Source of the DNA: Dehalococcoidia bacterium
GTDB taxonomy: Bacteria; Chloroflexota; Dehalococcoidia; UBA2979
NCBI GenBank assembly: GCA_965198045.1
Contig: CBDAOL010000007.1
Location: 57,612 to 121,611, forward strand
Direction: 5' to 3'
Length of the DNA stretch: 64,000 nt
Part shown: piece after piece, positions 3,532-31,401 of the stretch
Numbering within the stretch: the stretch's first letter is position 1
Layout of the letters: each line of letters begins with the position of its first letter
The notes under the pieces: generated by a model
Database searches by the model: none
Told to the model about the DNA's origin: nothing
The model's input: only the letters and a program-made list of their open reading frames with translations
Translations under genes and position numbers: made by a program

Positions 3532-3621
3532 GACGGACGCGATGATAGCGGGATGGGCGCACGTGTAGCGTCTGCGTACGAGGTCGGCCGGGTCCTGGGT
3601 CTTGAGCTGACCCTGGAAGGG

Positions 3622-4948: not shown

Positions 4949-5031
4949 GGCTAGCGCCGGGTGTGCGCGCCGGCACTACCACGCGACGGGGGATCAAGGG
5001 CACTCACCGATATAATCCCCTTATGGAGCGC

Positions 5032-5535: not shown

Positions 5536-5585
5536 AACCAGAGCGTAGGGTGCCAGCGGATCATGACGGGCAGTCCGCGGCTACG

Positions 5586-9575: not shown

Positions 9576-9830
9576 ATGACGAAGTTTCGAACACTCAACC
9601 CCGACGAAGTGCATGTCGGCCGAGGTAAGGACGCGGCCGCGGCGCGCGTGCAGTTCGTGAAAGCGATCGAGGGCGGCGACGCGGGACGCATCGATCTCGA
9701 GTCGGGGGACAACCCGGCCGTGATTAAGCGCCGCCTGCGTGAGGCGTCGAAGCAGGTCGGCATCAAGGTGCGCTCGTCGTGGGCGACCGACGCGCAGAAG
9801 ACCCTCTACTGGAAGCGCACCGGACTCTAG
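9576..9830 (+). CDS. Hypothetical small protein (84 aa)
   Basis: ATG-initiated ORF in an otherwise empty interval. No recognisable motif. Confidence 0.4.
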   Translation: MTKFRTLNPDEVHVGRGKDAAAARVQFVKAIEGGDAGRIDLESGDNPAVIKRRLREASKQVGIKVRSSWATDAQKTLYWKRTGL

Positions 9831-9873
9831 GCTCTAGGAGAGACTCCAGGAGCAGGAGTCGCGCTTCCCGGCG

Positions 9874-10914: not shown

Positions 10915-10972
10915 CGAGCCCGCCGCGACGACTGGAACATCAGTGGCACGAGCCAGTAGGTTCGTGCGCGTC

Positions 10973-11233
10973 GTGGAGGTTACGACCCTGGATATCTACG
11001 TAGGCAACCTGCCGTACTCGGCCGAGACCAGCGAGATCGAAGAGCTGTTCGCGCAGCACGGCGAGGTGCTTCGGTGCTCGCTGCCGACTGACCGCGAGAC
11101 CGGCCGCGCGCGTGGTTTCGGTTTCGTCAAGATGAGCGATGGCGATGCACGAAATGCGATTGCCGCGCTCGATGGCACCGACTTCGATGGGCGCTCGATG
11201 CGCGTCAATGAGGCCCGGGCCCGCGATCAGTAG
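10973..11233 (+). CDS. RRM-type RNA-binding protein
   Basis: IYVGNLPY (RNP2) and RGFGFVKM (RNP1) motifs. The start codon is uncertain (GTG 10973 chosen). Confidence 0.85.
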   Translation: MEVTTLDIYVGNLPYSAETSEIEELFAQHGEVLRCSLPTDRETGRARGFGFVKMSDGDARNAIAALDGTDFDGRSMRVNEARARDQ

Positions 11234-11257
11234 CTGACGCGGTGCGAGTTCAACTGA

Positions 11258-11290
11258 GGAGCCCCGCGGTCAGCCGCGGGGCTCCTTTGT
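11258..11290 (+). terminator. Rho-independent terminator-like hairpin between convergent genes
   Basis: GGAGCCCCGCGG-TCAG-CCGCGGGGCTCC is a perfect 12-bp stem, followed by TTTGT. It overlaps the stop codon of the convergent CoA-transferase gene. Confidence 0.6.
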
Positions 11291-13764: not shown

Positions 13765-13827
13765 TCCCGGCTAGCCGTGGCTCGTCGGGGCGGAGTATAA
13801 GAGCGGAACGAGCGAACAGGCGGCGGT

Positions 13828-14997
13828 ATGAAAAGCCTCAGGCAGCGCTATTGCATCGTGGGCGTGGGCAACACGGCCTACGGGAAGAACCCGGGCATCT
13901 CGCAGATCGCTCACAACGTGCTCGCGATCCGCGGGGCGCTCGACGACGCCGGGCTCACGACCGATGACCTCGACGGCGTGCTCACGAAGGCGCCGACGTC
14001 GACGTTCCCGATGCTCTTCGCGCCGCGCGTCGCCGAGGCGCTGCGCGTGCAGCCGAAGGTGACCGGCACGCTCGACCAGGCCGGCGCGAGCAACATCGGG
14101 CTGATCCAGTACGCCGTCAGCGCCATCGAGCTGGGCCAGGCGGAGGTCATCGCGATCTCGTACGGCGACAACCCGCGGACCGGCTCTCGCTCCACCTACG
14201 CCCGCCCCCGGGGTGACGACGCGCTGGCCGGGCTGTTCGGCGCGCCCTCCAGCTACGCGATGATCGCGCGCCGGCACATGTACGAGTACGGCACGACGCA
14301 CGAACAGCTGGCGAACGTCGCGATGACACATCGGGACCACGCGAGCAAGAACCTGAACGCGGTGTTCCAGGACACGTTCACCCTCGACGAATACATGAAC
14401 TCGCGCTGGGTGGCCGAGCCGTTCCACCTGCTCGACTGCTGCCCGGTGTCCGACGGCGGCGCGGCCTACATCGTCACCACGGAGGCGCGGGCGCGCGACC
14501 TGGCGAAGGCCCCGGTGTTCGTCGAGGGCATCGGGCAGGGGCACCCCTCGTGGGACTTCTATCGTCGCCCGGACATGGCCACGAGCGGCGCGAAGGTGGC
14601 GGGTGCGATGGCCTTCGAGTCGGCGGAGATGAGCCCGTCCGACATCGACTTCTGCGAGATCTACGACTGCTTCACGATCGTCCCGCTGGTGACGCTCGAG
14701 GACTATGGCTTCGTCGACAAGGGCGAAGGCGGGTCGTTCTACGAGGAGCACCGCACGCACATCGGCGGCGAACTGCCGTGCAACACCTCGGGCGGGCTCC
14801 TCAGCGAGACCGGGATGCCCGGCACGCAACTGGTCGTCGAGGCGGTGCGGCAGCTCCGCGGCGAGGGCGGTGAGCGCCAAGTGGCTGACGCCGAGGTCGG
14901 GCTCGTCAGCCAGCAGGGCGGCATTATGACGACCCACGCCGCGATGATCCTGTCGAACGACGGCCATACGGCCTCCTCGAACGGCTCGCCGGCATGA
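13828..14997 (+). CDS. SCP-x/lipid-transfer-type thiolase
   Basis: IVGVGNTAYGK..., LLDCCPVSDGGAA, NTSGGLLS motifs are typical of non-acetoacetyl thiolase-like proteins. Confidence 0.85.
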   Translation: MKSLRQRYCIVGVGNTAYGKNPGISQIAHNVLAIRGALDDAGLTTDDLDGVLTKAPTSTFPMLFAPRVAEALRVQPKVTGTLDQAGASNIGLIQYAVSAIELGQAEVIAISYGDNPRTGSRSTYARPRGDDALAGLFGAPSSYAMIARRHMYEYGTTHEQLANVAMTHRDHASKNLNAVFQDTFTLDEYMNSRWVAEPFHLLDCCPVSDGGAAYIVTTEARARDLAKAPVFVEGIGQGHPSWDFYRRPDMATSGAKVAGAMAFESAEMSPSDIDFCEIYDCFTIVPLVTLEDYGFVDKGEGGSFYEEHRTHIGGELPCNTSGGLLSETGMPGTQLVVEAVRQLRGEGGERQVADAEVGLVSQQGGIMTTHAAMILSNDGHTASSNGSPA

Positions 14998-15455
14998 CCA
15001 GCGACACGCGCGCACCGATCGAGGAGCGGTTCGCCGCGTTTGCGGCGCTCGCGCCCGAGCCGACGGAGCTGAACGCGCCGTACTGGGACGGCCTCGCGTC
15101 CGGCGAGGTGCGATTGCAGCATTGCAGCGCCTGCGGCGCCTACCAGCACCCGGCCGAATCGTTCTGCTACGAGTGCGGCGCGACGGACCTCGCATGGGTG
15201 ACGGTCAGCGGCGAGGGCAAGATCCACTCGTTCATCGTCGTGCACCAGCCCTACCACCCGGCGTTCCAGCCGTTCCTGCCCTACACCGTCGCCACGGTGC
15301 AGCTCGACGAGGGGCCACGGCTCCTCGGCCCGATGATCGAGCTCGACGCGCCGGTCGCTATCGGTGATCGCGTGCGGCCTCGCATCGAGCCGATCGCCGA
15401 GGATCGCGCGACGCTGTTCTTCGCGCCCGCCGACGCCTCGGCCGGAGGCGGGTAG
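14994..15455 (+). CDS. DUF35 OB-fold / zinc-ribbon protein (thiolase partner)
   Basis: CSACGAYQHPAESFCYECG zinc ribbon followed by an OB-fold segment. ATGA overlap with the thiolase stop. Confidence 0.8.
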   Translation: MTSDTRAPIEERFAAFAALAPEPTELNAPYWDGLASGEVRLQHCSACGAYQHPAESFCYECGATDLAWVTVSGEGKIHSFIVVHQPYHPAFQPFLPYTVATVQLDEGPRLLGPMIELDAPVAIGDRVRPRIEPIAEDRATLFFAPADASAGGG

Positions 15456-15457
15456 CG

Positions 15458-15886
15458 GTGCGCATCAAGAAACCGTGGACGGCGTGGGATGACGCGCTCG
15501 ATTATCGGCGGCTGCCGGGCGCGATGGGTGTCTACGAGCTGGCGGATGCGGACCACCGCACGCTCTACATCGGCAAGGCCGGCGGGCGCTCGCCGTACGG
15601 CCTGCGCGGCGAGCTGTTCCGCCACTTCGCCCCGCCGGAACGCCTCGCCGACGAGAACTGGTCACACCCGAGGATGGGCGTGACGCTGCCCTCGCTGGCC
15701 GGTCGCGCGCGCTACTACCGCTTCGAGGTGAACCACATGTACTACAGCCGATGGGTGGAGTGCCTCTCGCGGTTCCGCGAGGACCACGGCCGGCTGCCGG
15801 CCGGGAACCTCGAGGACCCCGAGCCGCTGCCGCCGCTTGGGCGCTACCACTGGCAGACGGACGAAGCGGGAACGGAGCCGGCCTGA
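15458..15886 (+). CDS. Hypothetical protein with GIY-YIG-like motif spacing
   Basis: GVYELADADHRTLYIGKAG (GVY, 10 residues, YIG), then R44/R50, H56, E90. It starts 2 nt after the DUF35 stop and overlaps the ACAD start by 1 nt. Confidence 0.5.
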   Translation: MRIKKPWTAWDDALDYRRLPGAMGVYELADADHRTLYIGKAGGRSPYGLRGELFRHFAPPERLADENWSHPRMGVTLPSLAGRARYYRFEVNHMYYSRWVECLSRFREDHGRLPAGNLEDPEPLPPLGRYHWQTDEAGTEPA

Positions 15887-17052
15887 TGGACCTGCAACAG
15901 AGCGAGGCGCAGCAGCTCATCATCGCCAACGTCCGGCGCTTCATCCGCGAGGAGATCCGGCCTCTCGAAGACGACCTCGACCCCGACGCCTACTCGCTGC
16001 CGGACGAGGAGCGTGAACGCCTCGTCGCCATGGTCAAGGAGATGGGCCTCTACCAGATGGACCTGCCGGAGGAGTACGGCGGTCCCGGCGTCGACACCGT
16101 GACGCGCACCCTGGTCGCGGAGGAGCTGTCGCAGCATCGCGCCGGCCTCTACGCACCCGCCTATGGCGTGTTCGGTTCCGGCCCGCCCGGGCAGCTCTTC
16201 TTCGCCAACGACGAGCAGAAGGAGCAGTACCTCTACCCGATGATCCGCGGCGAGAAGCGGGCGTTCTTCGGCCTCAGTGAGCCCTCGGGCGGGTCGGACC
16301 CGGCGCGGGCGATCCAGACGCGCGGCATCCGCGACGGCGACGACTGGGTGATCAACGGCAGCAAGCTCTGGAACTCGGGCGCGGACACTGCCGACTTCGG
16401 CATCGTCTACGTGCGCACCGATCCCGAGAAGGGGCGGCAGGGCATCACCGCCTTCCTCATCGACACCGACACGCCGGGCTTCCGTGTCGAGCGGCTGGTG
16501 CAGGTGCTGCGCGCCCACTACACGACCGAGCTGTCGTTCACCGACATGCGTGTGCCGCACGCGAACATCCTCGGCGAGGAGGGCGGTGGCTTCTCGCTGG
16601 CGAACGAGCAGCTCGCCGCGAACCGCATCCCGTACTCGGCCGCGTGCCTCGGGGTGGCGCAGTACGCACACGAGATGGCGATCGACTGGGCGAAGCAGCG
16701 CGAGACGTTCGGTCAGCCGCTGGCAAACCGCCAGGCGATCCAGTGGATGCTTGTCGACAACGAGATCGACCTGCGCACTGGACGCTGGGCCTGCCTCGAC
16801 GCCGCGGACAAGGCCGAACGAGGCCAGCCGTTCCGCTTCGAGTCATCGCTGGCCAAACTCGTCTGCTCGGAGGGCGCTGGCCGCGTCGTCGATCGCTGCA
16901 TGCAGATCTTCGGCGGGCTCGGCATGTCGAAGGACCTGCCGCTCGAGCGCTGGTACCGCGAGCTGCGTATCCGCCGCATCGGCGAAGGCCCATCCGAGGT
17001 CCAGCGCATCGTGATGGCGCGCGACATGCTCGGGGTCCGCAGCGGGGGATAA
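15886..17052 (+). CDS. Acyl-CoA dehydrogenase
   Basis: FGLSEPSGGSDPA, INGSKLWNSGA, QIFGGLGMSKDLPLERWYRELRIRRIGEGPSEVQ. ATG 15886 lies in a TGATG overlap. Confidence 0.9.
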   Translation: MDLQQSEAQQLIIANVRRFIREEIRPLEDDLDPDAYSLPDEERERLVAMVKEMGLYQMDLPEEYGGPGVDTVTRTLVAEELSQHRAGLYAPAYGVFGSGPPGQLFFANDEQKEQYLYPMIRGEKRAFFGLSEPSGGSDPARAIQTRGIRDGDDWVINGSKLWNSGADTADFGIVYVRTDPEKGRQGITAFLIDTDTPGFRVERLVQVLRAHYTTELSFTDMRVPHANILGEEGGGFSLANEQLAANRIPYSAACLGVAQYAHEMAIDWAKQRETFGQPLANRQAIQWMLVDNEIDLRTGRWACLDAADKAERGQPFRFESSLAKLVCSEGAGRVVDRCMQIFGGLGMSKDLPLERWYRELRIRRIGEGPSEVQRIVMARDMLGVRSGG

Positions 17053-17056
17053 CGGA

Positions 17057-17588
17057 GTGGCGACGGCCAAGCTCACGGGCAGTTACTCAGTCTTTAGCGT
17101 CGACTCCTACGCCGACAGCGTGGCTCACTACGTCGACTGGCTCGGCTTCAACCTCGGCTGGGAGTGGCGCGCCGCGCCCGAGGCGCCTGCGATCGTCTCG
17201 CTCTCCCGCGATAGCGTCTCGCTGATGCTGAACGAGGCCGATGCGGTGGCCACCGGCTCCCAGCTCACCGTCTTCGTCGACGACCTACAGGCTGGTGGAC
17301 GAGTGGAACGCTCGAGGCTCCGACACCGTCGCTGTGTCGGTGCAGCCCCCGTATGACATCCCCTCGGTCGTCATCGCGGACGCGGCGGGCAATCGCATCA
17401 GCTTCCAGCAGCCGATCGACGAGGCGGAGGAAGAGCGGCGCGCCCGGTTGCGGGGCACGATGCGTGAGTGGGTCCGGGCCCGCCTCGACGCTGGCGAGGA
17501 TGCGCCGACGGCCGAGCAGCTCGTCGAGGCGGTCGGCCGGCCGCTCGGCCTGGCGATCGAGGTGGTGCAGGAGTTCGCGGACCGCTAG
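17057..17588 (+). pseudogene. VOC (glyoxalase/bleomycin-resistance) family protein with one frameshift
   Basis: ORF 17057..17356 (YVDWLGFNLGWEW...LTVFVDDLQA) continues in the frame of ORF 17241..17588 (LVDEWNARG...VVIADAAGNRISF). The switch is near 17290-17293. Confidence 0.6.
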
Positions 17589-18400
17589 AGCAGCTCGCGC
17601 GCGTCCGAAGTGAGGCGCAGCGCACCGACGATGACCGCGCCGGCGAGTGCGGCGTGTCCGACGATCCGCACAGGCAGCGACCAGCGATCCGACACGCGCT
17701 CGAACGCCACGATTGCCCAGGTCGCGAGTGTCGCGAGGCCGGTCAGCACGACGAGCGAGCCCAACACCGGCGCCGACTCACAGCCGCAGCTGTCCTCGCT
17801 GAAGTACTGGATCACGAGCCCGGGGATGAGCAGCGCCCCGAGCGCCACGGGCACGATGTACCTGGACGCGTCATGCTCCTCAATGTCCTCGATCCGCGGG
17901 AAGCGGGCATCGAGGAGATGACGGATCCCAGCGACCGTCAGCCCGAAGATCAGGAACAACGCGAGGAACATCGTGACGTTCAACGGCTCGTTACGGAGGA
18001 TCGCGAAGTCGAAGTTGTCAGGCACGATCACCATGTGTCCAGCGACCGCTATCAGTGCCAGACCGAATGCCAGCGGCTTGAGGCGGCGAGCCCAGCCGAT
18101 CCACGGGTCGATGATCACGTAGGCGATGGCGCCAAACGCCCCACCGAGGACGCCGACGAAGATCACGATCGCAATCGTGCCGGGCGCGGTGATGTCCCCA
18201 ATCACGACCCCGCTCTCGGTGAGGATGCCGTTGACCCTCGAGGGGGCAGCGATCGCCGAGATGCGCATCACGATGCGCCCGCCCACCCCGCCGACGAGCA
18301 CGCCCGCGATCAGGCCAGCAACGCCGACGATCGCCGCGTGTCGCACAGTTTGACGCCACGCCAGGTCGAGCGGCGCCTCGATCGTTGTTGTTGCCACCAC
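17585..18400 (-). CDS. Integral membrane protein, function unknown
   Basis: 271-aa ORF with several long hydrophobic segments. Its stop overlaps the VOC stop within CTAG. Confidence 0.6.
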   Translation of the reverse strand: MVATTTIEAPLDLAWRQTVRHAAIVGVAGLIAGVLVGGVGGRIVMRISAIAAPSRVNGILTESGVVIGDITAPGTIAIVIFVGVLGGAFGAIAYVIIDPWIGWARRLKPLAFGLALIAVAGHMVIVPDNFDFAILRNEPLNVTMFLALFLIFGLTVAGIRHLLDARFPRIEDIEEHDASRYIVPVALGALLIPGLVIQYFSEDSCGCESAPVLGSLVVLTGLATLATWAIVAFERVSDRWSLPVRIVGHAALAGAVIVGALRLTSDARELL

Positions 18401-18521
18401 GCCCTCCTGACGACAGCTCCTTCTTCTACATACGTGATGGCGGGCCTGTCTGTCACGCCACTACGATGTGCGCCCAACGCCAGGCCGGCTCCAGCCGAGC
18501 CCTCGAGGGGAGCACGCGACG

Positions 18522-19316
18522 ATGACGATCGACTTCGAGGTCGCAGACCACATCGCGACGATCACGATCAACCGGCCGGAGGCGCTGAACGCAATGACGC
18601 CAGAGATGTATCGCCAGCTCTCGGAGAGCTGGGTGGAGGTTCGTGACAACCCGGACATCTGGGTCGCGGTCGTCGCCGGCGCGCCGCAGCCCTCGAGGCC
18701 GCCCGAGCGCCAGGTGTTCTCGGCGGGCGCCGACCTCAAGCAGACGATCCCGCAGACACCGGAGGCGTACTCGTTCTGGCAGACGCAGAGTGACCAGATC
18801 CTCAACCGTGGCCTCGAGGTCTGGAAGCCCATCGTCGCGGCCATTAACGGCCTCTGCCTCGCCGGCGGCATGACGCTGCTGCTCGCCACGGACATCCGCG
18901 TCGCATCGGAGCACGCGATGTTCGACCTCTCCGAGGTGAAGCGCGGCATCCTGCCGGGCAACGGCGGCACGCAGCGCACGATCCGGCAGCTGCCCTACCC
19001 GATCGCGATGGAGGTGCTGCTGCTCGGGCGGCGGCTCAGCGCCGAGCGCGCGGCGCACTTCGGCCTGATCAACGAGGTGGTCCCGCACGACGAGGTGCTC
19101 GACACCGCGATCGAGCGGGCGCGCGAGCTGGCCTCGATGGCGCCGCTGGCCGTGCGGGCGATCAAAGAGCTCTCCGTGCGGGCGCAGTACATGCCCCTCG
19201 GCGATGGCCTGCGGCTCGAAGAGGCGATTTCTGCGCGTCTGCGCGTAACCGAGGACGCGCAGGAGGGACCGCGCGCCTTCGCCGAGAAGCGGCAGCCCGA
19301 GTTCAAGGGGCGGTAG
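18522..19316 (+). CDS. Enoyl-CoA hydratase/isomerase (crotonase) family
   Basis: TITINRPEALNAM, FSAGADLK, AAINGLCLAGGMTLLLATDIRVA. Confidence 0.9.
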   Translation: MTIDFEVADHIATITINRPEALNAMTPEMYRQLSESWVEVRDNPDIWVAVVAGAPQPSRPPERQVFSAGADLKQTIPQTPEAYSFWQTQSDQILNRGLEVWKPIVAAINGLCLAGGMTLLLATDIRVASEHAMFDLSEVKRGILPGNGGTQRTIRQLPYPIAMEVLLLGRRLSAERAAHFGLINEVVPHDEVLDTAIERARELASMAPLAVRAIKELSVRAQYMPLGDGLRLEEAISARLRVTEDAQEGPRAFAEKRQPEFKGR

Positions 19317-19328
19317 GCTCGTAGGAGA

Positions 19329-20705
19329 GTGAGGAGCCGAACCATGACGCTCGATCGCGAAGAGGTCGCCGCGCACAGCTTCCATCGCAACGGTGGCAAG
19401 GTCTGGGCGCGCGGCGAGGGCATCTGGCTCATCGATGCCGACGGCGAGCGCTACATGGACGCCTCGGGCGGTCCGATGGTGGTCAACATCGGTCACGGCC
19501 GCCCGGAGCCCGCGGAGGCGGCAGCGAAACAGCTGCGCGAGGTGGGCTACCTGATGCCCGGTTACGCGAACGAGTCGCGCGTCGAACTTGCGCGACGCAT
19601 CGAGACGCTGGCGCCCGAGGGGCTGGACCGCGTCTGGTTCGGCTCCGGCGGGTCCGAGGCTGTGGAGGCGGCATCGAAGTTCGCGATCCAGGCGCAGCAG
19701 GTGCTGGGCCGCGAGGGCCGCTACAAGGTCCTCGGACGGCGCAACTCCTACCACGGCAACACGATCTACACGCTCTCGATCGGGCACTTCCCCTCGCGGC
19801 GCGAGCCGTTCCTACCGCTGCTGCAGCCGACGGAGCACGTGGCGGACTGCAACTGCTACCACTGCCCGTTCGACCAGACTTACCCCGACTGCGGCCTCGC
19901 CTGCGCGGACGACCTCGAGACGCGCATCCTCGCCGAGGGCCCGGAGACCGTCGCGGCGTTCATCGCCGAGCCGATCGTGGCCGCGGCCGCGGGCGTGGTC
20001 CCTCCGCCGTCGGCGGACTACTTCCGCCGCATCCGCGAGATCTGCACGAAGTACGACGTGCTGCTGATCGTCGACGAGGTGGTGACGGGCTTCGGGCGCA
20101 CGGGGCTGCCCTTCGCGGTGCAGCACTGGGATGTGCGCCCGGACGTGATCGTGTTCGCGAAGGGCGTCGCCTCGGGCTATGCACCGCTGGCGGGGTTCAT
20201 CGCCGCCGACGAGCTGGTGGCCGCGTTCGATGAGCAGAACCTGCCGTTCAACACGCTGTTCACCTACTCGGCCCATCCGGTCTCATGCGCCATCGGCGTC
20301 GCGGTGCAGAAAGTCGTCGAGGACGAGAACCTGATCGCACGCACGGCCGAGCTCGGCGAGTACCTCGCGACACGCCTCGAAGGGCTGCGCGAGGTGCCGA
20401 TCGTCGGCGACATCCGCGGCATGGGCCTGCTGCGCGGCATCGAGGTGGTGGCGAACCAGGAGACGGGCGAGCGCTTCCCCGCCGCGATGGACGTGGCCAA
20501 CGACATCCAACGCGAGCTTTACCGGCGCAACGTGCTGCACTACCAGGGCAACTGGCGCGACGACGAGGGCGCTGGCGCGCAGCTGATCATCGCTCCACCC
20601 TTCGTGATCGAGCGCGACGAGATCGATCTGCTCGTCGACACCCTCGCCGAGGTGCTGACCGACCGCGCCGACGTCTATGCGAAGGAGCGCGCCGCCGTCA
20701 GCTAG
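19329..20705 (+). CDS. Class III PLP-dependent aminotransferase
   Basis: GSEAVEAASKFA, LLIVDEVVTGFGRTG, FAKGVASGY (PLP lysine context). The start may be ATG 19344. Confidence 0.9.
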   Translation: MRSRTMTLDREEVAAHSFHRNGGKVWARGEGIWLIDADGERYMDASGGPMVVNIGHGRPEPAEAAAKQLREVGYLMPGYANESRVELARRIETLAPEGLDRVWFGSGGSEAVEAASKFAIQAQQVLGREGRYKVLGRRNSYHGNTIYTLSIGHFPSRREPFLPLLQPTEHVADCNCYHCPFDQTYPDCGLACADDLETRILAEGPETVAAFIAEPIVAAAAGVVPPPSADYFRRIREICTKYDVLLIVDEVVTGFGRTGLPFAVQHWDVRPDVIVFAKGVASGYAPLAGFIAADELVAAFDEQNLPFNTLFTYSAHPVSCAIGVAVQKVVEDENLIARTAELGEYLATRLEGLREVPIVGDIRGMGLLRGIEVVANQETGERFPAAMDVANDIQRELYRRNVLHYQGNWRDDEGAGAQLIIAPPFVIERDEIDLLVDTLAEVLTDRADVYAKERAAVS

Positions 20706-20719
20706 CGCGGCGGAGAGCG

Positions 20720-21589
20720 ATGGCACACACCCTCGAACGGATCGACAGCGCCTCGGCGTTCCTCGCAGCCGCGGGATCGTGGTTGTCAGCGCGCGAGGTC
20801 GAGCATGCGTTGATGCTCGGGATCGCCGGCACCGTCGCAGGCGGCCGCGCCTACGGTGAAGAGGCGCCCTGGTTCGCCCTCGTGCGTGACGGCGACGCCA
20901 TCGTGGCCGCATCGCTGCGGACGCCGCCGCAGAACGTGATCGTCGCGCTCGCCGACGCCGATGGAGCGATCGAGCTGATCGCGCGCGACGTCCTCGAAGC
21001 ATCGCGCACGCCGGGCGTGCTCGGCCCCGCCGCCGAGGCGGCTCGGTTCGTCGAGGTGTGGCGCGAACTGACCGGCGAGAGCGCCCGCCTGAACGTGGCG
21101 CAGCGCCTCTACCGGCTGACCTCGGTCGTCCCGCCGGCGGCCGTCGAGGGTTCGCTGCGACCGATCGAGGAGCGCGACCGTGCGGTCGTGGTGCGGTGGC
21201 TCGAGGAGTTCGACCGGGAGGCGCAGGGCAACGACGAGCCGCCAGACATGAACCCGGGGTTTGACCTCCGCCTCGAGGGTCCGCCGGACGTCACCGGGAT
21301 GTTGGTGTGGGAGGTCGCAGGACGCCTCGTCTCGGTCACGGGGTACGGCGGTCGTACCGCCGGCGGGATGCGCGTGGGGCCAGTGTACACGCCGCCCGAG
21401 GACCGCGGGCACGGCTGGGCGAGCGCGCTGGTGGCGGAGGGGACGCAGTGGCTCCTCGACGAAGGTCGCGAGTGGGTGTGCCTGTACACGGACCTGTCGA
21501 ACCCGACATCGAACAGGATCTACCAGGCGATCGGGTATGAGCCTGTGTTGGACTTCGACCAGTACGAGTTCGTCGCCGACCGGGGCTGA
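20720..21589 (+). CDS. GNAT family N-acetyltransferase
   Basis: The C-terminal VGPVYTPPEDRGHGWASALVAEG...NPTSNRIYQAIGY is an acetyl-CoA-binding motif. Only the last 289 codons of ORF 20285..21589 look genuine. Confidence 0.7.
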   Translation: MAHTLERIDSASAFLAAAGSWLSAREVEHALMLGIAGTVAGGRAYGEEAPWFALVRDGDAIVAASLRTPPQNVIVALADADGAIELIARDVLEASRTPGVLGPAAEAARFVEVWRELTGESARLNVAQRLYRLTSVVPPAAVEGSLRPIEERDRAVVVRWLEEFDREAQGNDEPPDMNPGFDLRLEGPPDVTGMLVWEVAGRLVSVTGYGGRTAGGMRVGPVYTPPEDRGHGWASALVAEGTQWLLDEGREWVCLYTDLSNPTSNRIYQAIGYEPVLDFDQYEFVADRG

Positions 21590-21592
21590 GCG

Positions 21593-21880
21593 TTACGCGG
21601 CCATCGGATCGTTGGCGGGCGGCGGAGCCTCGAACATGCCGACGAACGGGACAGTCAGGCCCTGGCTGGCCCAGCCACCACTGATGATCCTTCGCACCAT
21701 GACTCCGTACTCGCCGGTGGCGGTGCGCAGGGTGTAGCGCCCCGGTGTCAGGGCACGGCACGGCCCGTCCAGGCGCACGAAGCCGCGCCACCCTAGGAAG
21801 CCGATGCGCGAACCGGGGATGATCTCAACCACGCCGCGCGCGCGCACGTTCTCTGTCTCGTCGAGGATTTCAGCACGCAT
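21593..21880 (-). CDS. Hypothetical protein (95 aa)
   Basis: ATG ORF convergent with the GNAT gene. No motif recognised. Confidence 0.4.
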   Translation of the reverse strand: MRAEILDETENVRARGVVEIIPGSRIGFLGWRGFVRLDGPCRALTPGRYTLRTATGEYGVMVRRIISGGWASQGLTVPFVGMFEAPPPANDPMAA

Positions 21881-22157
21881 CTTGACCTGACCCTCCTCGG
21901 ACCGTGGCGGTCAGGACGGGGTGGAAGGACTGCTTGTTGGGTAGAACGACGCGGCGTCGGTTTCGTTCGCCGGCGGCGGCGTGACCAGCCGCAGATGCGC
22001 CACCATACGCAGGCCCCCCGCCGCGACAACCCTCGCCCACTCGCGCGATCGAGGCAGTGCGCGATGGGATCAGGCTAAGACCGCCTCGGGCGGCTCGAAT
22101 CGGCCAGAACCACTAGGGGAAGACCCTCGGTACGGTCGCCAGGCCGTGATGCTGACG

Positions 22158-22709
22158 CTAGGTCGCCGGGATGCCCTCGACGAGCGTCTGCACGATGGCC
22201 GCTGCCAGATCGTCGGGGCGGAACCCCATCGGTCCGGGCTCGCCCTTGAAGGCGATGCGGCCATCGCCGTCGACCAGGAAGAGACGATCGGGCACGGCGC
22301 CGTACGCACGGTTGGTGGCATCGTCCATCTCGTCGATCAGCATTGGAATCGTGACGTCGAGGCCCAGCGAACAGGCCTGAGCGACCGCCTCGCGTTCCTC
22401 GAACGTACCCGGCTGCTCGAAGACGACGTCCTGCTCCTCGTTGACGTCGAGCTGCCACTCGTCGGAGGGATGCGCCTCCTGGATGTAGACGACGTAGAAG
22501 TCGACACGGTCGCGGTACTGCTGGTAGAGCTCCTCCAGGCGCCCGGCCTGGAACCTGAACGGCGGTCAGGTGTAGCTGCCGAAGATCAGCCCGACGGGCC
22601 GCCCCTTCGAGTCGGAGAGCTTGACGCGCTCCTCGTTCTCGAGCCGGCGCAGGTCGAAGTCGTACGCCGCCTCGCCGACCTCGGGCGCGCCGTTCTGGAT
22701 CTCGCGCAT
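22158..22709 (-). CDS. Iodothyronine-deiodinase-fold thioredoxin-like protein with in-frame UGA (candidate selenocysteine) at the catalytic position
   Basis: Manual translation from ATG 22709 gives MREIQNG...GLIFGSYT-TGA-PPFRFQ...FYVVYIQEAHPSDEW...YGAVPDRLFLVDGDGRIAFKGEPGPMGF. This parallels the deiodinase motifs FGSCTUPSF, YIEEAHASDGW and LPERLYII..G.I.YKG..GP. The TGA is at 22566-22568 and there is no other stop until 22158. Confidence 0.7.
22533..22568 (-). promoter_or_regulatory. UGA codon plus candidate bacterial SECIS hairpin
   Basis: UGA, then a 12-nt spacer, then UUCCAGGC-CGGGC-GCCUGGAG (8-bp stem including one GU pair, G-rich 5-nt loop). Confidence 0.5.
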
Positions 22710-22723
22710 GAGCCCGACGTGCT

Positions 22724-23673
22724 GGCAGTGTCAGATCTCAGGGCGCGTCGACCCTTAGGCGCCACAAGGCGACGTCGCTGGTGGTCTATGCTACAGCCAG
22801 TTCGCTGATCAGCGAGTGCCAGCGTGTGAGGAAGAGCCGTCGCTGCTCTGTCAACGCGACATGGGCGCCACCGCGGCGGCGGACGCGGAAGTACTGTCGC
22901 AGCTCATCGAACGCGCTACAGAAGCGCGACGCGGACTCGAAGCTCCCGAAGCCCTGCATCGGGTAGTAGCGCTGCTTCACCGCTCGGTGACTCTGCTCGG
23001 TGTAGTTGTTGAGGTACTGCGTCGTGCGATGCCAAGCCTTGCGGCCGATGATCCAGCGGATCGCCCGTCGGTAAGCGGGGTGCAGGTCGGTCGTGATCCG
23101 TGCGGGCTTGCGTTCGGTGATCTCGACCAGTCTCCGCAAGAACCTCCGCGCGGCATGCTTGTCTCGACGCTCGCTCAGCATCGAATCGATCAGTTCTCCG
23201 TCGCCGTCGATCGCTCGGTAGAGGTAGCACCAGCGCCCAGCGACCTTCACGTACGTCTCGTCGAGGTACCAGGACTCGCCGGCTCGGGCTCGTCGCTTGG
23301 CGCGGAGTTGGTCGGCGAGCAGTGGGGCGAATCGAAACTCCCACTCCCGGATGGTCTCATGCGTGACCTCAACGCCGCGCTGAAGGAGCATTTCTGCCAC
23401 GTCGCGGAAACTCAGCTTGTAGCGCAGACGCCACAGCACCGCGAGGAGCACCACGTCGGTCGGGACCTGAAGATCGTTGAACGGCGTGCCGGTTCGCTCG
23501 TTGAAGCGACGCTTGCACGAGCGGCAGTTGAACCGCCGGTAGCCGAGCGTCGTGCGCGCCTGGCGTCTGGTCGTGGCGGCGGATGCACAGTGCGGACAGT
23601 TCACCGATGTCTCCTCGTCCATGCTCAGACGAGGCTAAACCTCACAGTTCGAGCCCTCAGATCTGACGCAGCC
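22724..23673 (-). mobile_element. IS6-family insertion sequence, copy A (950 bp)
   Basis: Ends are GGCAGTGTCAGATCTCAGGGC and GGCTGCGTCAGATCTGAGGGC, matching 18 of 21 as inverted repeats. Near-identical copies lie at 27936-28886 and 30452-31401. The flanking 8-mers GACGTGCT and ACGACTTA do not match. Confidence 0.9.
22786..23622 (-). CDS. IS6-family transposase (278 aa, N-terminal zinc finger)
   Basis: CPHC...CRSCKRRFNERTGTPFN, then WYLDETYVKVAGRWCYLYRAIDGDGELID...TTDLHPAY...LNNYTEQSHRAVKQR (DDE). Confidence 0.9.
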   Translation of the reverse strand: MDEETSVNCPHCASAATTRRQARTTLGYRRFNCRSCKRRFNERTGTPFNDLQVPTDVVLLAVLWRLRYKLSFRDVAEMLLQRGVEVTHETIREWEFRFAPLLADQLRAKRRARAGESWYLDETYVKVAGRWCYLYRAIDGDGELIDSMLSERRDKHAARRFLRRLVEITERKPARITTDLHPAYRRAIRWIIGRKAWHRTTQYLNNYTEQSHRAVKQRYYPMQGFGSFESASRFCSAFDELRQYFRVRRRGGAHVALTEQRRLFLTRWHSLISELAVA

Positions 23674-23832
23674 ACGACTTACCACCCGCACTGGGCGGAT
23701 GCTTCGCCTCGCTCGTGTACCCCAGGTCCTCGCGGCGCATCCGCCCAGTGCTGACGGCAGTTTCTGACGATGCGAAGCGGCTGGGCGCGGTTGCCAGTTC
23801 GCGTGCACCCGTGGGACGGCAAAACTTGATCC

Positions 23833-24616
23833 GTGCGGTTCGATGCTGAGATAGCAGAGTATCGGCGAGCCACGAGAGGCTCGTCTGTGCTCTACCTCCG
23901 TCTGCTTGTCGCAGCACTCTTCGCATCGGTCCGCGCCCGCCGAGATCTCGTCCTCAAGAACTTGGCGCTGCGGCATCAGCTCGCCGTCTACACAAGGGGC
24001 CGTCGTCGACCGCGGCTCCGTCGCCACGACCGCCGACTCTGGTCACTGCTGGCACGTGGTTGGTCCGGCTGGCGAGGCACGCTCGTGATGGTCGAGCCGG
24101 ACACGGTGGTGCGCTGGCATCGTTCTGCTTGGCGCGCCTACTGGCGCTGGAAGAGTCGTCGCCGCTCCGGACGACCCCGGATTCCCGCAGAGCTGCGACA
24201 GCTGATCGTCCGCATCGCCACTGAGCATCCGCGGTGGGGCGCCGTCCGCATCGTCGGCGAGCTGCGTGCCCTTGGCTTCGAGGTCAGCGCCCGCACCGTG
24301 AGTCGCTACCGCCCGCAAGCGCTGCGGCGCCCCCCGAGCCAGTCGTGGCGCACGTTTCTCCGCAACCACGCGTCCAGCATCTGGGCCGCCGATCTGTTCA
24401 CGGTCCAGACGCTCGCCTTCCGCACGGGTCAACGAACAACATCTCCGGCGGGTGCTTGGTGAGTACGTCCAGCACTACAACGCGATGCGGCCGCATCGAT
24501 CATTGTCGCTCGACTCTCCGGAGGGACGCTCGCCGGTGCAGCGGACGCCGAGTCAGCGAGTCGTCAGCAAGCCGGTGCTAGGAGGCTTGCATCATGAGTA
24601 TCGGTGGGCCGCATGA
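23833..24616 (+). pseudogene. rve (integrase-core) type transposase with the catalytic core deleted
   Basis: The N-terminal part ...LVLKNLALRHQL...GRPRIPAELRQLIVRIATEHPRWGAVRIVGEL...FTVQTLAF ends near 24425. The C-terminal tail NEQHLRRVLGEYVQHYNAMRPHRSL...GGLHHEYRWAA resumes at about 24440 in another frame. The DDE core between them is absent. Confidence 0.7.
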
Positions 24617-25884
24617 GGTTTTGCCGACTTGTTTGAATCCGGCCAGACACCGGGGGTTGCGGCCCTAAGGTGTTGAGGACGCTGGTCGGCTGACTCCAAG
24701 TTTTGCTGCCGTGCTGCTGAGCAGGACTGGCTCTGGGGCGGAGTGTCGCCGGCCACCGTCCGGCCGCGGTGTGACTCGACAGAGGCGTGCGGGTGCTCCC
24801 GAAGTCGGCCTGTCCACCGCCCTCCCCACCGCAATTCAGCTACGACAGGGAGAGCTTCATGATCTTGATCGCCGTCGACCCCCACAAGTCCTCGCATACC
24901 GCCCTCGCCGTCGACCCCGCGGGCCGCGAGCTCGGCCAGCTCCGGGTGGAAGCTCGTGCGCACAGCCGGCTGCTGCGCTGGGCGCGGCAGTGGCCCGAGC
25001 GCCGCTGGGCCGTGGAGGGGGCCCGCGGTCTCGGCCACGGCCTCAGCCAGTGGCTGCTCACGGAGGGCGAGTCGGTCGTCGATGTCCCGGCGCGGCTGGT
25101 GGCGCGCGTGCGCTTGCTCTCCGGTGGCGGGAAGTCCGACCCCGCAGACGCGCGTGCCATTGCGCTCGCCGCCCAACCCCTCACGGCGCTGCGTGCCGTG
25201 CGGGCGGAGGACGACACGGCGGTGCTGCGACTGCTCTCCGACCGCCGCGACGAGCTCACGCAGGAACGCACGCGCGTGGTCAACCGGCTGCACCGGCTGC
25301 TGCGCGAGCTACGACCGGGTGGGGGCCCCTCCAGGCTCTCCGCCGATCGCGCGCAGGCGCTCCTACGCCGCCTGCGTCCGACCGGCGCCGCGGATCGCGA
25401 GCGGCTGCGTATGGCCCGCGAACTGGTACGCGAGGTGCGGGTGCTGGACCGCAACCTCGTCGAGAACGGCCGCCGCCTCGAGGCAGCGCTGCGTGTACAA
25501 GGCAGCGCCCTCACGCGCATCCCCGGCGTCGGCGTGATCCTGGCGGCGAAGATTGTGGGGCGCAGCGGAGCGGTCAGTCGCTTCCCCTCGCGCGCGCACT
25601 ACGCCAGCTACACGGGGACGGCGCCGCTTGAGGTGTCGAGCGGGGAGGTCCAACGCCATCGCCTCAGCCGCGGTGGAGACCGCCAGCTGAACCGGGCGCT
25701 CCACATCGCGGCGCTCACCCAGGCGCGCATGCCGGGCACCGAAGGCCACGGCTACTTCCGTCGCAAACTCGCCGCTGGCAAGAGTCGGAACGAGGCGCTG
25801 CGCTGCCTCAAACGCCGACTCTCGGACGTCGTTTACCGATGCATGGTGGCCGATGCTCGCACCTGCGCTACCGAGGCCGCTTGA
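24617..25884 (+). mobile_element. IS110-family element 1 (boundaries not determinable from a single copy)
   Basis: An intact IS110-type transposase gene is preceded by about 240 nt of non-coding sequence. No terminal repeats are expected for this family. Confidence 0.5.
24859..25884 (+). CDS. IS110-family DEDD transposase/recombinase (341 aa)
   Basis: GGGAGA-N5-ATG; MILIAVDPHKSSH..., AVEGARGLG, KSDPADA, then C-terminal IPGVGVILAAKIVG...SSGEVQRHRLSRGGDRQLNRALH. Confidence 0.9.
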   Translation: MILIAVDPHKSSHTALAVDPAGRELGQLRVEARAHSRLLRWARQWPERRWAVEGARGLGHGLSQWLLTEGESVVDVPARLVARVRLLSGGGKSDPADARAIALAAQPLTALRAVRAEDDTAVLRLLSDRRDELTQERTRVVNRLHRLLRELRPGGGPSRLSADRAQALLRRLRPTGAADRERLRMARELVREVRVLDRNLVENGRRLEAALRVQGSALTRIPGVGVILAAKIVGRSGAVSRFPSRAHYASYTGTAPLEVSSGEVQRHRLSRGGDRQLNRALHIAALTQARMPGTEGHGYFRRKLAAGKSRNEALRCLKRRLSDVVYRCMVADARTCATEAA

Positions 25885-27192: not shown

Positions 27193-27935
27193 TCAGGCGG
27201 TGCGGACGAGCTTGTTGAGCGACTTCAGCTCCCGCGGCGGATCGAGGCGGCTGCCGGCGTTGGTGTACGAGACCTCGCCGACGTAGACATCGCCGCGCGA
27301 GTCGACGGCCACGCTGTGCGGTGCGATGAACTGGCCGGCGTCACTGCCCTCCTCGACGGCGCCGAACCGCCCGAGGAGCGTGCCGGAGCGGTCGTACACG
27401 CTCACGCGGTGGCCGATCCCGAGCGCGCCATCCATCAGCGCCACGCCGTTGAGCTCGCCGATGTAGACGAGACCGTCCTGCCCGACGGTGAGTCCGCACG
27501 GCCGGTGGACATCGTGCCAGACGTCGAGAAGCGTGCCCTCGCCGTCGAACACCTGGACGCGGAGTGCCTCGCGGTCGGCGACGTAGAGGCGGTCGTCGGC
27601 GTCGATGCTGATGTTGTGCGGGCACATGAACTGCCCTCGGTCGATGCCGGGCGAGCCCCAGGAGTGCAGCAACTCGCCCTCGGCCGAGTAGTGGTGCACG
27701 CGCGCGTTGCCGTAACCGTCGCTGATGTACAGGCTGCCGTCCGAGGCGACGGCAACGTCGGTCGGGCGGTTGAACGGCTCACCGCTGAACTTCTCGGCGG
27801 GCTCATCGGGGCGACCAATCGTCAGCAGCAGCTCACCCTCGGGCGTCCACTTCGTCACGGTGTGGCGGCCGTCGTCGACGCAGAACACGGAGCCATCGGG
27901 CGCGATGGTGATCGCGTGCGTGCGTGCGCTAAAGG
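27193..27935 (-). pseudogene. NHL-repeat beta-propeller protein, 5' end removed by IS6 copy B
   Basis: Repeated ...DGSLYISDGYGNARV..., ...DDRLYVADRE..., ...DGLVYIGE... The open frame runs without a start codon straight into the IS end at 27936. Confidence 0.7.
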
Positions 27936-28886
27936 GGCTGCGTCAGATCTGAGGGCTCGAGCTGTGAGGTTTAGCCTCGTCTGAGCATGGACGAGGAGAC
28001 ATCGGTGAACTGTCCGCACTGTGCATCCGCCGCCACGACCAGACGCCAGGCGCGCACGACGCTCGGCTACCGGCGGTTCAACTGCCGCTCGTGCAAGCGT
28101 CGCTTCAACGAGCGAACCGGCACGCCGTTCAACCATCTTCAGGTCCCGACCGACGTGGTGCTCCTCGCGGTGCTGTGGCGTCTGCGCTACAAGCTGAGTT
28201 TCCGCGACGTGGCAGAGATGCTCCTCCAGCGCGGTGTTGAGGTCACGCACGAGACCATCCGGGAGTGGGAGTTTCGATTCGCCCCACTGCTCGCCGGCCA
28301 GCTCCGCGCCAAGCGACGAGCCCGAGCCGGCGAGTCCTGGTACCTCGACGAGACGTACGTGAAGGTCGCTGGGCGCTGGTGCTACCTCTACCGAGCGATC
28401 GACGGCGACGGAGAACTGATCGATTCGATGCTGAGCGAGCGTCGAGACAAGCATGCCGCGCGGAGGTTCTTGCGGAGACTGGTCGAGATCACCGAACGCA
28501 AGCCCGCACGGATCACGACCGACCTGCACCCCGCTTACCGACGGGCGATCCGCTGGATCATCGGCCGCAAGGCTTGGCATCGCACGACGCAGTACCTCAA
28601 CAACTACACCGAGCAGAGTCACCGAGCGGTGAAGCAGCGCTACTACCCGATGCAGGGCTTCGGGAGCTTCGAGTCCGCGTCGCGCTTCTGTAGCGCGTTC
28701 GATGAGCTGCGACAGTACTTCCGCGTCCGCCGCCGCAGTGGCGCCCATGTCGCGTTGACAGAGCAGCGACGGCTCTTCCTCACACGCTGGCACTCGCTGA
28801 TCAGCGAACTGGCTGCAGCATAGACCAGCAGCGACATCGCCTTGTGGCGCCTAAGGGTCGACGCGCCCTGAGATTCTGACACTGCC
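27936..28886 (+). mobile_element. IS6-family insertion sequence, copy B (951 bp)
   Basis: Same ends as copy A, with a 1-nt insertion in the right inverted repeat (GAGATTCTGACA). The flanking 8-mers GCTAAAGG and GTGACGAA do not match. Confidence 0.9.
27987..28823 (+). CDS. IS6-family transposase
   Basis: 278-aa ORF differing from copy A at about 4 residues. Confidence 0.9.
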   Translation: MDEETSVNCPHCASAATTRRQARTTLGYRRFNCRSCKRRFNERTGTPFNHLQVPTDVVLLAVLWRLRYKLSFRDVAEMLLQRGVEVTHETIREWEFRFAPLLAGQLRAKRRARAGESWYLDETYVKVAGRWCYLYRAIDGDGELIDSMLSERRDKHAARRFLRRLVEITERKPARITTDLHPAYRRAIRWIIGRKAWHRTTQYLNNYTEQSHRAVKQRYYPMQGFGSFESASRFCSAFDELRQYFRVRRRSGAHVALTEQRRLFLTRWHSLISELAAA

Positions 28887-28888
28887 GT

Positions 28889-29152
28889 GACGAAGCCTTC
28901 GCGCGCTGGATGACGACCGCCACCCCGTTCCTCTCAGCGCACGGCGCTCAGGTGCTCTATGCTGGTAGCATCGCGGAGTTGCTCGTTGGGGATGTGGGTG
29001 GCACGTGGGATCGGATGGTCCTGATCCAGTATCCGACCCGCCAGGCGGTCCTCGACTTGGCGGCGGATCCCGCGTTCCGGGAGGCCGTGCCGCAGCGCGA
29101 CGCGATCGTGGCCGCCCAGGTCTTGTACGCGACCGACCCCAGCGGGGACTGA
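28889..29152 (+). pseudogene. DUF1330 family protein, N-terminally truncated by IS6 copy B
   Basis: DEAFARWMTTATPFLSAHGAQVLYAG...VLIQYPTRQAVLDLAADPAFREA matches the interior and C-terminus of DUF1330. The frame is open back to the IS end. Confidence 0.6.
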
Positions 29153-30249: not shown

Positions 30250-30451
30250 GGGCCCGCGTCTCTCTTCGCGAGCTCTGACGATCGCGCGACGCCCCGCCGC
30301 GACAGACGAGACCGATCGAGGAGCAGCCCATGCGCGAGCCAGCAGCGGCACCGAAACCGATCCGCAACGACGTGATGCAGCCCGCGGAGGAGGTGCTGGT
30401 GCTGCGTGACCACGCGCTCCGGCTCGGCTCGCACCGTCAGTACTTCGAGTG

Positions 30452-31401
30452 GGCTGCGTCAGATCTGAGGGCTCGAACTGTGAGGTTTAGCCTCGTCTGA
30501 GCATGGACGAGGAGACATCGGTGAACTGTCCGCACTGTGCATCCGCCGCCACGACCAGACGCCAGGCGCGCACGACGCTCGGCTACCGGCGGTTCAACTG
30601 CCGCTCGTGCAAGCGTCGCTTCAACGAGCGAACCGGCACGCCGTTCAACCATCTTCAGGTCCCGACCGACGTGGTGCTCCTCGCGGTGCTGTGGCGTCTG
30701 CGCTACAAGCTGAGTTTCCGCGACGTGGCAGAGATGCTCCTCCAGCGCGGTGTTGAGGTCACGCACGAGACCATCCGGGAGTGGGAGTTTCGATTCGCCC
30801 CACTGCTCGCCGGCCAGCTCCGCGCCAAGCGACGAGCCCGAGCCGGCGAGTCCTGGTACCTCGACGAGACGTACGTGAAGGTCGCTGGGCGCTGGTGCTA
30901 CCTCTACCGAGCGATCGACGGCGACGGAGAACTGATCGATTCGATGCTGAGCGAGCGTCGAGACAAGCATGCCGCGCGGAGGTTCTTGCGGAGACTGGTC
31001 GAGATCACCGAACGCAAGCCCGCACGGATCACGACCGACCTGCACCCCGCTTACCGACGGGCGATCCGCTGGATCATCGGCCGCAAGGCTTGGCATCGCA
31101 CGACGCAGTACCTCAACAACTACACCGAGCAGAGTCACCGAGCGGTGAAGCAGCGCTACTACCCGATGCAGGGCTTCGGGAGCTTCGAGTCCGCGTCGCG
31201 CTTCTGTAGCGCGTTCGATGAGCTGCGACAGTACTTCCGCGTCCGCCGCCGCGGTGGCGCCCATGTCGCGTTGACAGAGCAGCGACGGCTCTTCCTCACA
31301 CGCTGGCACTCGCTGATCAGCGAACTGGCTGCAGCATAGACCACCAGCGACGTCGCCTTGTGGCGCCTAAGGGTCGACGCGCCCTGAGATCTGACACTGC
31401 C
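30452..31401 (+). mobile_element. IS6-family insertion sequence, copy C (950 bp)
   Basis: Same ends as copies A and B, in direct orientation with B. The flanking 8-mers TTCGAGTG and GTGGTAAA do not match. Confidence 0.9.
30503..31339 (+). CDS. IS6-family transposase
   Basis: 278-aa ORF, one residue different from copy B. Confidence 0.9.
   Translation: MDEETSVNCPHCASAATTRRQARTTLGYRRFNCRSCKRRFNERTGTPFNHLQVPTDVVLLAVLWRLRYKLSFRDVAEMLLQRGVEVTHETIREWEFRFAPLLAGQLRAKRRARAGESWYLDETYVKVAGRWCYLYRAIDGDGELIDSMLSERRDKHAARRFLRRLVEITERKPARITTDLHPAYRRAIRWIIGRKAWHRTTQYLNNYTEQSHRAVKQRYYPMQGFGSFESASRFCSAFDELRQYFRVRRRGGAHVALTEQRRLFLTRWHSLISELAAA

Follow-up and report, generated by a model that had tools for sequence, protein, structure and literature searches.

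The 64,000-nucleotide stretch analysed here (the window) belongs to contig CBDAOL010000007.1 of a Dehalococcoidia bacterium and contains, on the minus strand from position 22709 to 22158, an open reading frame (ORF) of 183 codons plus stop that is interrupted by a single in-frame TGA at 22568-22566. This ORF is the remnant of a deiodinase-like selenoprotein gene, comprising codons 63-245 of the ancestral protein and the stop codon, and it represents a real copy of an already known bacterial selenoprotein family. The TGA, which is found in the context GLIFGSYT-TGA-PPFRF (GLIFGSYT-TGA-PPFRFQAGRLEE), corresponds to the ancestral selenocysteine (Sec) codon, as it falls on the cysteine (Cys) of Cys-type homologues and on the residue that is the catalytic Sec in animal deiodinases. 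Translation confirmed the frame and the single catalytic-site TGA that an earlier, sequence-only reading of this DNA had proposed, and the deiodinase fold assigned in that reading is equally well supported. With a Cys put at the TGA, the remnant protein matched the Pfam family PF00837 (T4_deiodinase) with an E-value of 2.6e-29 and 102.6 bits, compared to a cutoff of 27, with AhpC/Redoxin families being weaker matches. The match spans residues 12-170, and the PF00837/thioredoxin-fold catalytic domain is complete. For the full-length form encoded in sister genomes, mouse DIO3 (4TR3, E=5.9e-21) and DIO2 (9H48) were the best PDB sequence matches, and alignment to these structures places the TGA at the catalytic Sec/Cys position. 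Besides the active-site motif, the protein has a conserved Glu/His (YIQEAH) and a near-invariant Cys about 65 residues downstream of Sec, which, judging from its conservation, could serve as a resolving thiol. Throughout the window, this is the sole TGA flanked on both sides by sequence of coding-type composition (GC content at third codon positions, GC3, >0.8 and GC1>GC2), and no further TGA-containing coding ORFs were found in the 64 kb.

Homologous loci, labelled L007-L170, were fetched from reference genomes and metagenomes, with L165-L167 representing sister genomes. Across both sources, 153 of 157 distinct homologous sites carry TGA at the Sec codon, and 4 carry TGT or TGC. The 80 reference-genome loci that were inspected stem from Chloroflexota, Myxococcota, Acidobacteriota, Planctomycetota, Actinomycetota, Binatia, and others, and all of their sites (83/83) are TGA. 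Even a metagenome scan seeded with Cys-type proteins returned sites that were still TGA in 70 of 71 cases. Relatives of the gene were recorded in at least 594 reference genomes, from phyla of soil and sediment, with TGA in all of the 80 inspected. The nearest named DIO-like homologues are from Chloroflexota, at approximately 60% identity. The sequence-only reading had recognized that TGC in close relatives would turn the TGA into a probable nonsense mutation; all of the close relatives (L161-L167, 80-97% amino acid identity) carry TGA.

The family is poorly represented in gene annotations, as the sequence-only reading had anticipated for this gene. While all full-length database proteins among the matches listed contain a Cys at the Sec site (FGSYTCPPFR), about 80 of the 120 matches listed are proteins of 110-130 amino acids that begin just past the FGSYTCPPFR motif, a pattern typical of gene calls that were interrupted by the TGA. 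The mechanical ORF list of the window shows only a 61-amino-acid C-terminal ORF for the remnant, and the gene callers used for the sister genomes split the deiodinase-like gene into fragments of 109 and 61 amino acids. Among intact close orthologues, the ratio of non-synonymous to synonymous rates (omega) is 0.27-0.48 upstream of the TGA and 0.18-0.34 downstream of it, at a synonymous divergence (dS) of about 0.6-0.8. Both halves of the intact orthologues are under purifying selection and, since this selection acts on both sides of the TGA, translation through the TGA is required. At the level of the family, the comparative data therefore support the reading of the TGA as a conserved Sec codon.

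In some genomes, genes of the Sec-decoding machinery are encoded in the vicinity. In a Planctomycetota genome (L030), selC (the gene for tRNA-Sec), selB, selA, and selD are arranged in this order 3.6-9 kb from the deiodinase-like gene (1164-6390 and 10001-10492, respectively), and in L085 some 50 nt separate the end of a selB homologue from the deiodinase-like gene that follows (167-1453 and 1501-2082). Across the 80 loci, no conserved gene neighbourhood hinting at a function or substrate was found. Some genomes contain 2 or 3 deiodinase-like TGA genes in tandem within a few kb, as in L007 (Dehalococcoidia OZ240228.1; positions 10120, 10889, and 15899) and L087 (1633 and 2315).

Downstream of the TGA, folding and comparative alignment delineated a hairpin resembling a Sec insertion sequence (SECIS) on the minus strand at 22553-22533 (UUCCAGGC-CGGGC-GCCUGGAG). 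It comprises an 8-bp stem and the loop CGGGC, begins 12 nt past the UGA (+13 to +33), and has a conserved core of 6 bp (22551-22546 paired with 22540-22535), with the loop beginning 20 nt past the UGA. The sequence-only reading had taken this hairpin as having the geometry of a bacterial SECIS: the structure is present where it was described and covaries among relatives, but on its own it is no more stable than shuffled sequence (z=0.06; 92 of 200 dinucleotide shuffles fold as well) and is therefore meaningful only through comparative data. Single-sequence folding was accordingly rejected as SECIS evidence, being uninformative at this GC content.

The 48 nt starting from the UGA could be aligned without gaps across 80 sequences, which revealed 2 hairpin registers, shifted by 2-3 nt, in different clades of one protein family. 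The type-B helix, found in most clades, consists of 7 bp (columns 14-20 with 24-30) and the loop GGC or GGU. It is paired in 76% of cells, whereas shuffling the columns lowers this to 52% and sliding one side of the helix to 49% or less; 5 of its 7 pairs show double-sided changes, and in many Acidobacteriota members it contains one bulged C. The window-type helix (columns 16-23 with 29-36) is shared by the window and its Chloroflexota-like relatives and is paired in 83% of cells, compared to 23-44% when slid, in 27 sequences of the same register, with near-universal pairing in the 6-bp core; as this subset was picked for pairing, only the slide control and the compensatory changes count as evidence, the latter affecting 3 of the 6 core pairs (18/34, seen as C-G, U-A, and G-C, as well as 22/30 and 23/29). 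The encoded peptide varies with the hairpin register (RFQAGRL, RAQAGHL, or RREVPAL). The apical loop contains a G in all cases, which matches the published criterion for bacterial SECIS elements, a stable stem-loop immediately downstream of the UGA with a G in a small apical loop (PMC1088965). No Rfam family, eukaryotic SECIS included, matched the region 22100-22800 at E<=10. Taken together, the alignment supports the hairpin as a conserved, covarying SECIS-like element. In addition, a Cys-type (TGC) homologue, P0018 (L170 1306-1353), has kept a near type-B hairpin (GGCCCAGGCUGGGAC) at the SECIS position, and this Cys-form gene may have arisen by a recent Sec-to-Cys conversion.

The sister loci L165-L167, which are located on contigs of 3.0-6.6 Mb (the sister genomes being represented by ERZ21829562 ctg258104l, ERZ28763718 ctg125171, and ERZ28669063 ctg98425), were reached via P0127, a 90%-identity cluster mate of the thiolase encoded in the window. 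They share with the window a synteny block of 14 kb (14.2 kb; window 8585-22723, corresponding to L165:4738-18893) at approximately 93% nucleotide identity, which encodes a luciferase-like monooxygenase, a CoA-transferase, a thiolase, an acyl-CoA dehydrogenase, an enoyl-CoA hydratase, an aminotransferase, and an acetyltransferase, and which ends at the deiodinase-like gene. Over its retained part, the remnant is 96.7% identical in amino acid sequence to these sister orthologues. The sister gene comprises 245 codons (MANAPDLETMLEALPAEMQVRMRERMAGLDEAGRERMRGRMAAAYGAMDDHTRTQMLKHVGL-MREIQ…). Its TGA and hairpin are those of the window, a CoA-transferase gene lies just before it, and its surroundings are free of IS6 elements.

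In the window, an insertion sequence (IS) of the IS6 family, copy A, takes the place of the beginning of the gene. It occupies 22724-23675 on the minus strand, with boundaries determined from 3 copies that have the ends GGCTGCGTCAGATCTGAGGGC… and …GCCCTGAGATCTGACACTGCC in common, and its transposase ORF (23622-22786) matches DDE_Tnp_IS240 (PF13610, E=1.3e-38); the element is 82% identical at the nucleotide level to an IS6-like element of the sister genomes. Its right inverted repeat, …GATCTGACACTGCC, abuts the truncated gene, and it is exactly at 22723, one base away from where IS6 ends (22724), that blastn homology to L162 and L165-L167 sets in. Only 14 nt of native DNA (22710-22723, minus strand) are left upstream of ATG 22709, a distance that had been given correctly in the sequence-only reading, and these read (Q)HVGL, comparable to KHVGL or KHIGL of intact orthologues. 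The window reads (IS6)…QHVGLMREIQNGAPEVGE… at the junction, where L162 (about 82% amino acid identity; the closest relative with upstream sequence) reads …REQMLKHIGLMREIQNGAPEVGE… and where L162 and L165-L167 together show …KH(I/V)GLMREIQNGAPEVGE…. By this alignment, ATG 22709, previously taken as the start of the gene, is not the native start but encodes an internal Met (…KHVGL-M-REIQ…) in an ancestral ORF of 245 codons. In about 85 homologues a plausible start codon precedes the Sec codon by 57-106 codons, compared to 47 in the window, where a stop within the IS6 end bounds the frame. A complete ORF with a native start is consequently not present, as 62 N-terminal codons are absent; these were not found elsewhere in the window, including beside IS6 copies B or C, as would be the case after an inversion.

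Judged against the sister genomes, IS6 removed 62 codons, the promoter, and the upstream neighbour of the remnant. The suggestion that expression may now depend on the IS end thus understated the damage: the copy is truncated and not merely IS-dependent. IS6 copy A lacks an 8-bp target duplication, with the flanks reading TAAGTCGT and AGCACGTC. Since there is no target duplication and the 5' part of the gene is absent from the other side of the element, an IS-mediated adjacent deletion or rearrangement, in the manner of IS26-type elements, fits the junction better than a simple insertion. Compared to the sister gene, the remnant exhibits 18 synonymous and 6 non-synonymous changes (omega of about 0.1) and neither a frameshift nor an extra stop, which indicates that the event was recent or that the remnant is still constrained.

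Copy A is one of 3 near-identical IS6-family copies within 9 kb, the others being located on the plus strand at approximately 27934-28890 (copy B) and 30450-31400 (copy C). No matching 8-bp duplication was seen at any of the flanks that were inspected, which is suggestive of deletions or rearrangements mediated by the IS elements in this region. An IS110 element (24787-25884) and a fragment of an HTH_32 transposase (23833-24462) lie between the IS6 copies.

A second truncation affects selC. In the sister genomes, ARAGORN identified an intact 97-nt tRNA-Sec with a UCA anticodon, an 8-bp acceptor stem, and a long variable arm, which scores 70.2 bits with Rfam RF01852, compared to a gathering score of 47. 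It is located approximately 14 kb from the deiodinase-like gene, within the synteny region (L165 4315-4411). At the corresponding place, the window retains 39 nt (6780-6742, minus strand) that are 100% identical to nt 1-39 of the sister tRNA-Sec and comprise the 5' acceptor strand, the D-arm, and the anticodon stem and loop up to UUCAAA. The 3' 58 nt of selC have no match anywhere in the window, and neither ARAGORN nor a permissive Rfam scan of the full window revealed a tRNA-Sec in the 64 kb; the same full-window scan and a local scan did detect a tRNA-Pro (47708-47781, 63.5 bits, gathering score 29). Likewise, no homologues of SelA, SelB, or SelD were found in the window. As far as these 64 kb are concerned, the search for Sec-decoding genes that had been proposed as a check on the sequence-only reading therefore points in the opposite direction, with the syntenic selC truncated and none of the 3 protein genes detected.

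The 3' half of selC is replaced by a prophage remnant of about 2.2 kb with lower GC content (approximately 4500-6741), which abuts the 39-nt piece and is unique within the window. On its minus strand it has genes for a terminase small subunit (5035-5535) and an HNH endonuclease (5935-6369). Left of selC, the sisters differ from one another in their DNA (rve, serine-recombinase, and IS6-like genes), and on account of this variation selC looks like an integration hot spot. Furthermore, L165 carries an inverted partial copy of the tRNA-Sec 5' half at 4236-4278 (plus strand), 37 nt past the 3' end of the intact gene. The window itself encodes a 1-Cys peroxiredoxin (AhpC-TSA and 1-cysPrx_C; 3625-4314, minus strand) immediately to the left of the prophage remnant; its Cys is an ordinary one and its frame contains no TGA.

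An alpha/beta-hydrolase gene of the same block is split at 6942-8512 by an IS5-like element with a DUF772/DDE_Tnp_1 transposase, which is flanked by a duplication of approximately 4 bp (CGCT). The hydrolase gene is uninterrupted in the sister genomes (L165 4505-5470). Two more IS5-like copies are located near 37.8-39.2 kb and 43.5-44.9 kb. With regard to a plasmid origin of the window, no meaningful PLSDB match was obtained.

In intact orthologues, the ribosome would reach the UGA in …FGSYT-UGA-PPFR…, where the coding-region hairpin, positioned 14-15 nt downstream of the UGA and carrying a small G-containing apical loop, would recruit SelB·GTP·Sec-tRNASec. Sec would then be inserted at the UGA and translation would go on for approximately 135 codons, yielding a putative thioredoxin-fold oxidoreductase with a catalytic Sec and a deiodinase active-site motif. 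A redox or dehalogenation role of this protein is a matter of conjecture. In the lineage of the window, the IS6-family element has taken the place of the first 62 codons together with the promoter and the upstream neighbour, probably by IS-mediated adjacent deletion, and the only tRNA-Sec gene visible in the syntenic region has lost its 3' 58 nt next to the prophage remnant. If read-through transcription of the IS6 transposase gene extends into the remnant, a ribosome starting at the internal Met should be halted by the UGA after 47 residues, unless another selC is available. With the promoter, the native start, and the conserved N-terminal segment absent and the neighbouring selC broken, the remnant is most likely a relic. 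We thus consider it very probable that it represents a recent, not yet decayed pseudogene, presumably no longer expressed, and that its IS-rich genome is giving up Sec decoding or no longer has it.

Several observations weigh against this interpretation. The remnant displays no decay, with a low omega and an unchanged TGA and hairpin, and may still be selected unless its truncation is very recent. It is co-oriented with and directly downstream of the IS6 transposase gene, which makes read-through transcription possible, and its whole catalytic domain is kept. A scan for promoters and terminators near the IS6 end found nothing, and such a scan, relying on the sigma-70 consensus, is of limited value at 69% GC. 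Moreover, the Cys-type control for the hairpin is small and mixed: the 4 genes fold with -4.7, -5.1, -9.3, and -10.4 kcal/mol, compared to a mean of -10.5 kcal/mol for the Sec forms, so that 2 of them fold about as well, one of these retaining a near type-B hairpin, and 2 are without a comparable hairpin. Finally, the contig is at least 235 kb long, of which the analysis covers 64 kb, and a second selC as well as selA, selB, and selD may lie elsewhere; the contig is metagenome-assembled and its junctions are known from the assembly alone.

A different account of the TGA itself, that it is a recent nonsense mutation in a Cys-type gene with the hairpin being incidental, would be in line with the abundance of disrupted genes in this region and with a single-sequence fold no better than that of shuffles. 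It is, however, incompatible with the TGA in every close relative and at nearly all distinct sites, with the covariation of the hairpin, and with the purifying selection on the sequence downstream of the TGA; these exclude the scenario for practical purposes, leaving it a negligible probability, and on the same grounds the selenoprotein interpretation put forward in the sequence-only reading stands at the family level. The truncations could also be assembly artefacts, the contig being a chimera joined at repeated or mobile DNA while the gene and selC are in reality as intact as in the sisters. The metagenomic source and the coincidence of the deiodinase-like breakpoint with an element present in 3 copies within 9 kb, a classic site of mis-joins, speak for this possibility. 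Yet the terminal inverted repeat of IS6 meets the gene with single-base precision, as expected for a real insertion or deletion, and the DNA next to the selC breakpoint is not a repeat but occurs just once in the window. Furthermore, a third independent IS event in the same block, the IS5-like insertion with its 4-bp duplication, looks genuine, and the megabase-long sister contigs indicate that this lineage assembles well. We therefore regard an artefact as highly improbable.

A somewhat better, though still unlikely, alternative is that the truncated gene is working: transcribed by read-through or from an outward promoter of IS6, started at Met 22709, and supplied with tRNA-Sec from elsewhere in the genome, it would produce an N-terminally shortened enzyme with the full catalytic domain. 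The complete PF00837 match, the TGA and hairpin identical to those of the sisters, the lack of disabling mutations at an omega of about 0.1, and the position of the gene, in the same orientation as the IS6 transposase and 77 nt past its stop, are all compatible with residual function, as is the restriction of our view to a 64-kb window of the genome. On the other hand, all of the approximately 85 homologues keep at least 57 and typically 80-105 codons before the Sec codon, and the N-terminal segment is conserved within clades (omega of 0.27-0.48) and hence probably needed. In addition, AGCACGTCGGGCTC-ATG contains no evident Shine-Dalgarno sequence and the promoter scan gave no candidate site; bacteria normally carry a single selC, and the syntenic one is destroyed. 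Our preferred interpretation of the remnant remains that of a young pseudogene. Whether the window captures a loss of Sec decoding in progress is a separate matter, to which we assign even chances: selC and the selenoprotein gene have both been truncated by mobile DNA within 16 kb, the sister genomes (about 93% identity) keep both genes intact, and the orphaned UGA and SECIS are pristine.

The gene family itself is not new. Bacterial deiodinase-like selenoproteins (PF00837) with an in-frame UGA and a bacterial SECIS were described from the Sargasso Sea metagenome by Zhang, Fomenko & Gladyshev in 2005 (PMC1088965), based on 4 Sec and 6 Cys sequences and with a proposed redox role unrelated to thyroid hormones, and the family is included in prokaryotic selenoproteome reviews of 2022 and 2026 (PMC9312934, PMC13188914). 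The window gene shares with this family the domain, the UGA at the catalytic position, the existence of Cys homologues, the G-loop hairpin just downstream, and the presumed redox function. It differs from it in being 5'-truncated by IS6. Furthermore, while the motif is tabulated as UxxC in the reviews, the clade of the window has U-P-P-F together with the near-invariant downstream Cys. The Sec form, found in 4 of the 10 sequences reported in 2005 (PMC1088965), occurs at 153 of 157 sites among the closest relatives sampled here, and 2 alternative hairpin registers exist depending on the clade.

With animal DIO1-3, the window gene shares a homologous catalytic domain (E=5.9e-21), the motifs FGS-x-T-U-PPF and YI-x-EAH-x-SD-x-W, and Sec at the same position. 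However, the animal genes rely on a kink-turn SECIS in the 3' untranslated region and the window gene has a bacterial-type hairpin within the coding region. Moreover, the N-terminal segment in the window clade is Met/Arg-rich and, as far as can be predicted, soluble, in contrast to that of DIO1-3, Cys239 of DIO3 is not conserved (a different Cys is), and thyroid hormones, the substrates of DIO1-3, are not expected for the bacterial forms (PMC1088965). The window gene is thus a homologue of the animal DIO catalytic domain only and not a member of DIO1-3. Similarly, the hairpin resembles the fdhF-type SECIS of Escherichia coli in its location within the ORF, 12-15 nt after the UGA, in its short G-containing apical loop, and, in many deiodinase-like members, in one bulged nucleotide in the helix, but there is no sequence similarity and no Rfam match, the stem sequence and register vary by clade, and binding by SelB is presumed.

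The gene selC is a signature of the Sec-decoding trait, which has been lost in the course of bacterial evolution (Romero et al. 2005, PMC1273633; Zhang et al. 2006, PMC1794560). The present case resembles such losses in that selC and a selenoprotein gene are both inactivated and both kept in the sisters. It differs in that both lesions derive from mobile DNA (IS6 and a prophage remnant) and are recent, with a pristine UGA and SECIS, and in that it is seen through a 64-kb window. The family, the SECIS type, and trait loss have all been documented already, and no new principle emerges.

The chief interest of the locus therefore is an annotation lesson together with a possible snapshot of Sec-trait loss. 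The Sec family within PF00837 is systematically mis-annotated and, as almost all of the closest relatives sampled use Sec, prokaryotic selenoproteomes are under-counted. The abundance of the Sec form in Dehalococcoidia, Acidobacteriota, and Myxococcota makes these proteins reasonable targets for biochemistry. The most fitting annotation for the window gene is that of a 5'-truncated selenoprotein pseudogene adjoining IS6, and the truncation of selC points to a probable loss of Sec decoding in this genome. If this is true, that is, if there is no second selC, if selA, selB, and selD are gone or decaying, and if other selenoproteins have been converted to Cys forms or lost, this genome would provide a dated and mechanistically explicit case of IS expansion dismantling a recoding system.

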